Source: a virus. From it: 64,000 bases of DNA. Below are positions 24,277 to 25,807 of this stretch, in pieces (position 1 is the first letter of the stretch; the number at the start of each line of letters is the position of its first letter). The DNA lies in UHGV virus genome UHGV-1351569. One strand, given 5' to 3'. Both the position numbers and the translations under genes were made by a program. The notes under the pieces were generated by a model, which searched no databases, had not been told where the DNA came from, and worked only from the letters and a program-made list of their open reading frames with translations.

Positions 24277-24349
24277 TGGGAATTAGCCAAGTTGGTAAGG
24301 CACTGGATTTTGATTCCAGGATGCAAAGGTTCGAGTCCTTTATTCCCAG
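24277..24349 (+). tRNA. tRNA-Gln (anticodon UUG), CCA not encoded
   Basis: cloverleaf read by hand: acceptor TGGGAAT/ATTCCCA, anticodon stem CTGGA/TCCAG, loop TTTTGAT. Confidence 0.8.
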
Positions 24350-24350
24350 C

Positions 24351-24437
24351 GCGAGAATGGTCAAATTGGTAAAGGCACAGCACTTAAAATGCTGCGGAAT
24401 GATTTCCTTGTGGGTTCGAGTCCCACTTCTCGCACCA
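24351..24437 (+). tRNA. tRNA-Leu (anticodon UAA), type II long variable arm
   Basis: acceptor GCGAGAA/TTCTCGC, anticodon loop CTTAAAA, encoded CCA. Confidence 0.8.
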
Positions 24438-24442
24438 AATTT

Positions 24443-24516
<74 letters not shown>

Positions 24517-24526
24517 ATTTAATTTA

Positions 24527-24603
24527 CTCCGTGTAGCTCAGTTTGGTAGAGCACCTCACTTGTAATGAGGATGTCGGCGGTTCGATTCCGTCAATCAGCA
24601 CCA
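24527..24603 (+). tRNA. tRNA-like gene with Thr anticodon UGU but non-complementary acceptor stem (probable hybrid / pseudo-tRNA)
   Basis: D, anticodon and T arms fold normally; 5' acceptor strand CTCCGTG cannot pair with 3' strand AATCAGC (4 of 7 mismatches). Confidence 0.55.
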
Positions 24604-24604
24604 A

Positions 24605-24676
24605 GGCCCTGTAGCTGGAAGGTTCAAGCAAGCGACTCATAATCGCCAGATGGTGGTTCAATTCCACCCAGGGCCA
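24605..24676 (+). tRNA. tRNA-Ile (anticodon CAU, lysidine type), CCA not encoded
   Basis: acceptor GGCCCTG/CAGGGCC, T arm GGTGG-TTCAATT-CCACC, anticodon loop CTCATAA. Confidence 0.7.
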
Positions 24677-24717: not shown

Positions 24718-25383
24718 ATGTTCTATTACACTTATAAAATAACAAATAAAATTAATAATAAAATTTATATTGGTGTGCATTCTACCGAAAATTTAGATGA
24801 TGGATATATGGGTTCTGGTAAATTATTAAAAAGAGCCCAAGATAAATATGGTATAGAAAATTTTTCTAAAGAAATATTAGAGTATTTTGATGATAAAGAA
24901 TCTATGCTTGAAGCCGAGAAAAATATTGTTACAGAAGAGTTTTTAAATAGACCAGATGTGTATAATTTAAAACTTGGCGGTGAAGGTGGATGGGACCATA
25001 TAAATATTCCTGGGATGCTAAACCAGAAGAAAGACGCTAGTTTAAAAGGAGCTAAATCGTTTAAGTCACGTTTTAAAAATGATATTTTACTTCAAGAAAA
25101 ATATCGTAAACATGGTTCAAATGTATTTAAACAGCTTTGGGATAATCCTAAGTATAGAGAGAAATTTTTAAATACTAAATCTTTCTTGGGTAAGACCCAT
25201 ACTCTTGAAACTATTAATAAAATGAAAGAATCTCACGCCAGAAATAAACACCAACAGGGCGAAAAGAATTCCCAATTTGGTATGATGTGGATTCATTCAT
25301 TAGATGAAAAAGTTTCTAAACGTATTAAGAAAACTGACCCAATTCCAGAAGGATGGTTTAAAGGTCGAAAAATGAAATTTTAA
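24718..25383 (+). CDS. segB: GIY-YIG homing endonuclease SegB
   Basis: 221 aa; N-terminal YKITNKINNKIYIGVHS...GYMGSG GIY-YIG motif; located inside the tRNA cluster as T4 segB. Confidence 0.85.
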   Translation: MFYYTYKITNKINNKIYIGVHSTENLDDGYMGSGKLLKRAQDKYGIENFSKEILEYFDDKESMLEAEKNIVTEEFLNRPDVYNLKLGGEGGWDHINIPGMLNQKKDASLKGAKSFKSRFKNDILLQEKYRKHGSNVFKQLWDNPKYREKFLNTKSFLGKTHTLETINKMKESHARNKHQQGEKNSQFGMMWIHSLDEKVSKRIKKTDPIPEGWFKGRKMKF

Positions 25384-25386
25384 TTA

Positions 25387-25463
<77 letters not shown>

Positions 25464-25780
25464 AACAAGAAACCGGGTCGCTACCGGTAAGTCGTCGGAC
25501 TGATGTTCCCTGTTTAAGGACTGGCATTAATAAATCTTTATGTTTTGTTGATGCCCTCTTACATCACAGCAGAAACGGCGCACCGAATTATCGATTCGAG
25601 GAAATATTTTTGCCGTAAGCCGAGTAGCGTTTTTGACGGAACGTTCGGATATGGTCGAGATATGGCCTTTTAAAAATATTGAGTAGCGTCAACTGCTTAA
25701 TAACCGGGTTCGAATCCCGGCGTTTCGTACAAACACTTGCCTTAGCAGGTGGAACCCCGACAAGGTTGCCGCAAGGCTTA
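25464..25780 (+). ncRNA. small stable RNA region (rnaC/rnaD-like)
   Basis: ORF-free 0.3 kb directly after tRNA-Arg with tRNA-like T-arm CCGGG-TTCGAAT-CCCGG; T4 encodes two stable RNAs at this position. Confidence 0.4.
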
Positions 25781-25807
25781 GCCCCAACCGAAAGGTTGGG
25801 GCTTTTT
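25781..25807 (+). terminator. rho-independent terminator (GCCCCAACC-gaaa-GGTTGGGGC + T5)
   Basis: 9-bp stem, GAAA loop, T-run. Confidence 0.7.

Follow-up and report, generated by a model that had tools for sequence, protein, structure and literature searches.

A Pro–Thr chimaeric tRNA pseudogene as the probable remnant of a 169-bp deletion in the tRNA cluster of a T4-like phage

A 77-nt element in the tRNA cluster of a T4-like phage of the genus Tequatrovirus is very probably a pseudogene, the recombinant remnant of a 169-bp deletion that ran from one copy of the octamer GGTAGAGC to the other in a T4-type sub-cluster of seven genes. The element occupies positions 24527-24603 (+ strand) of the window, by which we mean the whole stretch of 64,000 nucleotides that was analysed (UHGV virus genome UHGV-1351569). 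It joins the start of a tRNA-Pro to the body of a tRNA-Thr, and the two strands that should form its acceptor stem cannot pair. The failed pairing, the junction and the colinearity with intact relatives are seen directly; from these we infer the remaining steps. The event is ordinary gene decay and the element a non-functional recombination scar. Its interest is modest and lies in the recurrence of the scar beside a nuclease known to cut there and in a mis-annotated equivalent in phage T6.

Structure of the hybrid and its surroundings

The 13-kb stretch around the hybrid is 94-96% identical to the best-matching coliphage records, and no near-identical full-length record for the window phage was found in the phage collection searched. 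The block from tRNA-Gln to the tRNA at the place of tRNA-Ile spans 24277-24676, which is 400 bp, and holds five units, against seven genes in T4 and PP01, where the order of the intact sub-cluster is Gln-Leu-Gly-Pro-Ser-Thr-Ile. An earlier reading made from the sequence alone (the sequence-only reading) had given a block of about 400 bp with five genes where T4 has seven, in agreement with this. The cluster opens with three intact genes on the + strand that were called by ARAGORN and matched over their full length by the Rfam tRNA model: tRNA-Gln(UUG) at 24277-24350 (67.4 bits), tRNA-Leu(UAA) at 24351-24437 (59.3 bits) and tRNA-Gly(UCC) at 24443-24516 (65.8 bits). The hybrid follows, and after it an intact tRNA with a CAT anticodon at the place of T4 tRNA-Ile (24605-24676, +; ARAGORN and Rfam), which is a PP01-type allele by alignment.

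Further downstream on the same strand, starting 115 bp from the hybrid, the list of open reading frames shows an intact segB (24718-25383, 221 aa), a GIY-YIG homing endonuclease gene whose length and position match the annotated segB in T4, T6 and PP01. It is followed by an intact tRNA-Arg(UCU) at 25387-25463 (+; ARAGORN, Rfam and alignment) and, by alignment to the T4 annotation, by counterparts of rnaD (about 25465-25584, +) and rnaC (about 25591-25729, +). A strong terminator-like hairpin found by the terminator scan at 25780-25803 marks the end of the tRNA transcription unit.

The tRNA-Gly, the Thr part of the hybrid and the rnaD and rnaC counterparts are nearly identical to those of T4, and the high conservation of the last two is accompanied by no significant match in Rfam, only a weak one resembling tRNA-Sec (25636-25728, 16.6 bits). 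The CAT (Ile/Met) tRNA and the tRNA-Arg(UCU), which stand on either side of segB, are alleles that diverge strongly from their T4 and T6 counterparts. In the alignment the CAT tRNA is identical to the PP01 copy; ARAGORN labels it Met, and its T4 counterpart is tRNA-Ile. From the sequences compared, these divergent alleles look like the outcome of allelic replacement around a homing endonuclease gene.

The hybrid reads CTCCGTG-TA-GCTC-AGTTTGGTA-GAGC-A-CCTCA-CTTGTAA-TGAGG-ATGTC-GGCGG-TTCGATT-CCGTC-AATCAGC-ACCA. Its first part (24527-24544, +) comprises CTCCGTG, U8/A9, the 5′ strand of the D-stem and a Pro-type D-loop (AGTTT), and is identical to positions 1-18 of tRNA-Pro in T4 and PP01. The octamer GGTAGAGC comes next (24545-24552, +), and the remainder (24553-24603, +) is derived from tRNA-Thr(UGU) and contains position 26, the anticodon arm with the loop CTTGTAA, the variable loop, the T arm, AATCAGC, the discriminator A and an encoded CCA. 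From the shared octamer through the CCA the hybrid is identical to T4 tRNA-Thr, and the Rfam local match (24534-24592) supports this assignment. The 5′ strand of T4 tRNA-Thr is GCTGATT, just as had been predicted for the partner of the Thr-like 3′ half; it is absent from the hybrid (GCUGAUU in the RNA), which thus lacks whole-gene identity to a T4-type tRNA-Thr(UGU). The tentative assignment of CTCCGTG to the acceptor of T4 tRNA-Pro was right as well, while the partner strand given for it, CACGGAG, was wrong: it is TATGGAG in T4 and CGCGGAG in PP01.

Because the 5′ acceptor strand and the D-loop come from Pro and everything else from Thr, the acceptor stem cannot form. A functional bacterial-type tRNA needs a stem of seven base pairs (positions 1-7 with 66-72), and CTCCGTG and AATCAGC can form only three of these (U2-G71, G5-U68 and U6-A67), two of them wobbles, with mismatches at 1-72 (C/C), 3-70 (C/A), 4-69 (C/C) and 7-66 (G/A). 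The other three helices are all present. Rfam pairs the D arm, an anticodon arm with a 7-nt loop and a T arm with GTTCGAnnC, and RNAfold agrees, so that the normal D, anticodon (UGU) and T arms and encoded CCA noticed by the sequence-only reading, and its unpairable acceptor, are upheld by the sequence and the local alignment alike. The covariance model RF00005 matches the hybrid only locally, with 47 bits (gathering score 29), and stops at model positions 8-63 of 71, giving no fold with a paired acceptor. The five neighbouring tRNAs are aligned over positions 1-71 with 59-69 bits and fold as cleanly as had been claimed. ARAGORN likewise called Gln, Leu, Gly, Met(CAT) and Arg in the window and nothing at 24527-24603. 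Further Rfam matches in the interval (Plastid-ycf2, YrlA and others) were set aside as opposite-strand tRNA look-alikes under their gathering scores.

The loss of the stem is also apparent in the predicted folding energies. The hybrid folds at -19.1 kcal/mol, with z = -0.36 against shuffled sequences, and its sole closing helix is register-shifted, formed by 4 bp (GUGU/GCAC) that take in the discriminator and the first C of the CCA. Intact T4 tRNA-Thr (-25.4 kcal/mol, z = -2.58) and T4 tRNA-Pro (-24.2 kcal/mol, z = -2.09) both give a clean cloverleaf.

The 169-bp deletion and sister hybrids in T6 and CJY920

In a four-way alignment that also included T6, the window matches T4 and PP01 base for base on both flanks of a single gap, which runs from the D-arm of tRNA-Pro to the homologous place in tRNA-Thr. 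The missing 169 bp comprise tRNA-Pro from nucleotide 27 onward, the whole of tRNA-Ser and the first 25 nt of tRNA-Thr. In intact genomes the Pro and Thr D-arms share two short sequences: TAGCTCAGT, of 9 nt, whose copies are 170 bp apart, and GGTAGAGC, of 8 nt, with a spacing of 169 bp. The Pro gene has TT between the two and a G after GGTAGAGC; the Thr gene has an A at both places. As the window keeps the TTT of Pro before GGTAGAGC and the A of Thr after it, the junction must be the octamer at 24545-24552. Both endpoints of the deletion therefore lie in GGTAGAGC, of which the window has one copy and intact relatives have two. Colinear flanks, a gap bounded by a direct repeat and a single remaining copy are what a deletion between short repeats leaves behind. 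When the 169 bp between the two copies were removed in silico from T4 (NC_000866), the product was identical to 24527-24603 at 77 of 77 positions. The proposal that a deletion had fused Pro to Thr with the loss of tRNA-Ser is thereby borne out, and the junction does lie in a D-arm repeat; the repeat is not the perfect 21-mer TAGCTCAGTTTGGTAGAGCAC that had been put forward, since the parents have only TAGCTCAGT and GGTAGAGC in common.

A query spanning the junction was used to look for the same event elsewhere. Alignments too long for one parent were found in 4 of 50,697 phage records, three of T6 and one of CJY920. The T6 hybrid lies at 66647-66721 of MH550421, where it is annotated as tRNA-Thr-UGU, and is also present in AP018814 and in NC_054907, which belongs to the RefSeq series and equals AP018814 in length. 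The CJY920 hybrid lies at about 1518-1595 of the locus sequence compared (PQ349265). Like the window, both phages carry CTCCGTG of Pro joined to a Thr body, with no tRNA-Ser, an unpaired acceptor and segB downstream. Unlike it, they have their junction 9-17 nt further upstream, within the shared TAGCTCAGT, so that the deletion is of 170 bp and the D-loop is of the Thr type (AGTAGG) rather than the Pro type. Simulating the 170-bp deletion between the TAGCTCAGT copies of T4 gave exactly the T6 hybrid, and the same deletion in PP01 gave exactly that of CJY920, including the C in the variable loop and a 3′ end without CCA. ARAGORN left both hybrids uncalled and called Pro, Ser and Thr in T4 and PP01. 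T6 also differs from the window in carrying a tRNA-Tyr.

Since the junction in T6 and CJY920 differs from that of the window, the deletion must have arisen at least twice; there are two classes of junction and, judging from the sequences, possibly three events. A single event shared with T6 would be conceivable if a variant Thr allele with a Pro-type D-loop existed. We rejected this, as no such allele was found among the 50,697 phage records (best match 96.3%), which leaves only the chimaeric reading. The reverse polarity, with the hybrid as the ancestral state and Pro-Ser-Thr as an insertion, was also rejected, because about 419 phage records retain most of the block (at least 80% kept), compared with the 4 that have a hybrid, and because the hybrid is an exact chimaera. 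The phages that keep the block include RB3, which lacks segB and whose tRNA region has been reported without it (PMC2330249). There are no substitutions between the hybrid and its parents, which fits a recent event, although constraint would fit too.

The exact junction of the window was not found in INPHARED or IMG/VR, and a pattern for both junction types gave no match in IMG/VR, JGI metagenomes or GTDB genomes. These zeros say little, because a T4-type Thr gene is present on only 2 contigs of IMG/VR. With two distinct junctions only a few nucleotides from each other in separate lineages, the Pro/Thr D-arm pair stands out as a recurrent deletion site, and two sites targeted by the adjacent homing endonuclease lie within its span. 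The tRNA-Thr annotation in T6 needs correcting; 'tRNA-Thr from T6 phage' is also listed among the over-expressed tRNAs in a 2026 study (PMC13096335). No paper describing the T6 gene as a hybrid was found in the literature searched, and one may exist among the T4 tRNA papers of the 1970s-80s.

Fate of the RNA and trigger of the deletion

The terminator scan found no terminator between tRNA-Gln and the hairpin after rnaC, that is, before 25780, and the hybrid is therefore probably co-transcribed with its neighbours. RNase P and the enzymes that handle the CCA end and aminoacylation read the stack of the acceptor and T arm. E. coli ThrRS recognises the anticodon and the pairs 1-72 and 2-71, its identity set being G1-C72, C2-G71 and G35/U36. 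The hybrid retains the UGU anticodon and has C/C at 1-72 and U-G at 2-71. With these two identity pairs gone, charging by ThrRS would not be expected, and from what is known of tRNA biology RNase P would presumably be unable to process the 5′ end correctly. It would seem likely that the RNA is degraded after transcription and that the tRNAs on either side, Gly and Ile, undergo normal maturation, because both of their cloverleaves persist when Gly, hybrid and Ile are folded together; the idea that the hybrid disturbs the folding of its neighbours was rejected on the same grounds.

In effect, then, the phage has lost three tRNAs, Pro-UGG, Ser-UGA and Thr-UGU, and has five working tRNAs in the window, not six. 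The codons that these would decode are in heavy use: the share of ACA among Thr codons is 33%, that of UCA among UCN-Ser codons 38% and that of CCA among Pro codons 38%. Together with the lack of substitutions in the hybrid, this suggests that the loss is recent and tolerated. Losing help with the decoding of ACA, UCA and CCA could make the phage less fit where the host has little of those isoacceptors. On laboratory hosts, T4 mutants with deleted tRNA genes are able to grow, and by analogy the window phage would be expected to be viable without its Pro, Ser and Thr tRNA genes. A T6 mutant constructed without the tRNA-rich region is viable (PMC13096335).

Could the element nonetheless be something other than a scar? 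It might be a functional, non-canonical, stable tRNA-like RNA that serves as a decoy for anticodon nucleases or as a processing signal. Its D, anticodon and T arms and its CCA are intact and unmutated, RNAfold allows a weak closing helix of 4 bp, the operon already encodes the stable non-tRNA RNAs rnaC and rnaD, and phage tRNAs of this locus do counter tRNA-targeting defences (PMC13096335). We nevertheless regard such a function as very unlikely. The hybrid occurs in only three lineages, against about 419 records with intact genes; compensatory changes are absent; the fold is no more stable than those of shuffled sequences; and, since the two junctions give different D-loops, no single product has been conserved. 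In addition, over-expression of the T6 'tRNA-Thr' was not reported to rescue infection from the Septu defence, which only tRNA-Tyr was reported to do (PMC13096335). That the junction is an artefact of assembly or sequencing, in a phage that truly has an intact Pro-Ser-Thr block, is extremely improbable. The window is a single sequence and its exact junction is in no other sequence in INPHARED, IMG/VR, JGI metagenomes or GTDB genomes, but its flanks show perfect colinearity, three separate T6 records (MH550421, AP018814 and NC_054907) contain the sister deletion, and the collapse of a repeat during assembly is implausible because 8 nt is far below the k-mer of any assembler.

The position of the deletion raises the question of what triggered it. 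The site at which SegB cuts within tRNA genes is 27 bp long and has the T-arm motif GGTTCRANTCC as its core; in vitro the enzyme cuts T4's own Pro and Ser genes (PMC2330249). Counted from the start of Pro, the corresponding GGTTCAAATCC core of Pro is at +52 and that of Ser at +141. As both cores are inside the lost 169-bp interval and an intact segB adjoins it, a SegB break is a plausible trigger. SegB would make a double-strand break in the T-arm of tRNA-Pro or tRNA-Ser, the break would be resected, and annealing of the flanking short D-arm repeats would then give the deletion of 169 or 170 bp. In T6, rearrangement at microhomologies in this same locus depends on SegB, UvsX and UvsY (PMC13096335). 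All three phages with a hybrid have segB, as do most of their relatives, and the case for a role of SegB is circumstantial; by analogy with T6, we would put this sequence of break, resection and annealing at somewhat below an even chance.

T4 also forms deletions between short repeats without any nuclease, and joints in short direct repeats are the classic signature of deletion by slippage, known in T4 rII. The two junctions described here coincide exactly with short direct repeats spaced 169-170 bp from each other, and replication slippage or copy-choice between such 8-9-nt repeats, with no break by SegB, could well have given the same product, with a probability approaching one half. It would also suit the expression of SegB, which is thought to be low (PMC2330249). 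However, the cluster contains longer repeats, since the T-arms of Pro and Ser share 13 nt in T4 and 16/18 nt in PP01. The searches made turned up no deletion joined at these, but at least two deletions have used the Pro/Thr D-arm pair, between whose copies two SegB cores lie. Moreover, the experimental rearrangement at the T6 locus was SegB-dependent (PMC13096335). Slippage and a SegB break seem about equally likely.

A perfect SegB core motif, GGTTCGATTCC, remains in the T-arm of the hybrid at 24579-24589 and similar cores are present at 24328, 24413 and 24655, so the shortened cluster is still a potential target of its own nuclease. That SegB might erode as well as amplify the tRNA genes of its host would be cheap to test. 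A bolder combination, in which the D-arm deletion is a recurrent product of SegB and the surviving RNA is a stable decoy against tRNA-targeting defence, has to our mind very little chance of being correct. If it were, SegB would drive both the loss and the gain of tRNA genes and the T6 'tRNA-Thr' would not be a tRNA.

Comparison with known systems

Phage vB-Eco-KMB39 is closely related to the window phage. In it a homing endonuclease gene of 609 bp (OR539219, 67654-68262) stands between tRNA-Gly and tRNA-Ser, in the usual place of tRNA-Pro, and Tyr and Asn tRNAs follow Met. The same partial match is seen in at least two more records, TadeuszReichstein and HY01. From its sequence this arrangement appears to be another nuclease-associated remodelling of the cluster.

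It has been known since the 1970s that T4 can lose internal parts of its tRNA cluster and remain viable. The psu-b deletion series of Wilson, Kim and Abelson reportedly consists of viable mutants of this kind and resembles the window in that several clustered tRNA genes were lost by internal deletion from viable T4-type phages; those mutants were selected in the laboratory, unlike the window phage. No description of hybrid tRNA genes in T4 deletion mutants was found in the literature searched, and the papers of the 1970s-80s may contain one.

The SegB-driven segmental amplification of tRNA-Tyr and segB in T6 (PMC13096335) is similar in concerning the same locus with the same nuclease gene adjoining, with joints at short homologies within or near tRNA genes and SegB cores inside the segment affected. 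In T6, however, copies were gained under selection, whereas in the window copies were lost, with no evidence of selection and with a dependence on SegB that is inferred. With tRNA pseudogenes in general the hybrid shares three recognisable arms, one broken helix and a lower, local covariance-model score. It differs from the typical tRNA pseudogene in being a clean chimaera of two functional parents rather than the product of decay by point mutation.
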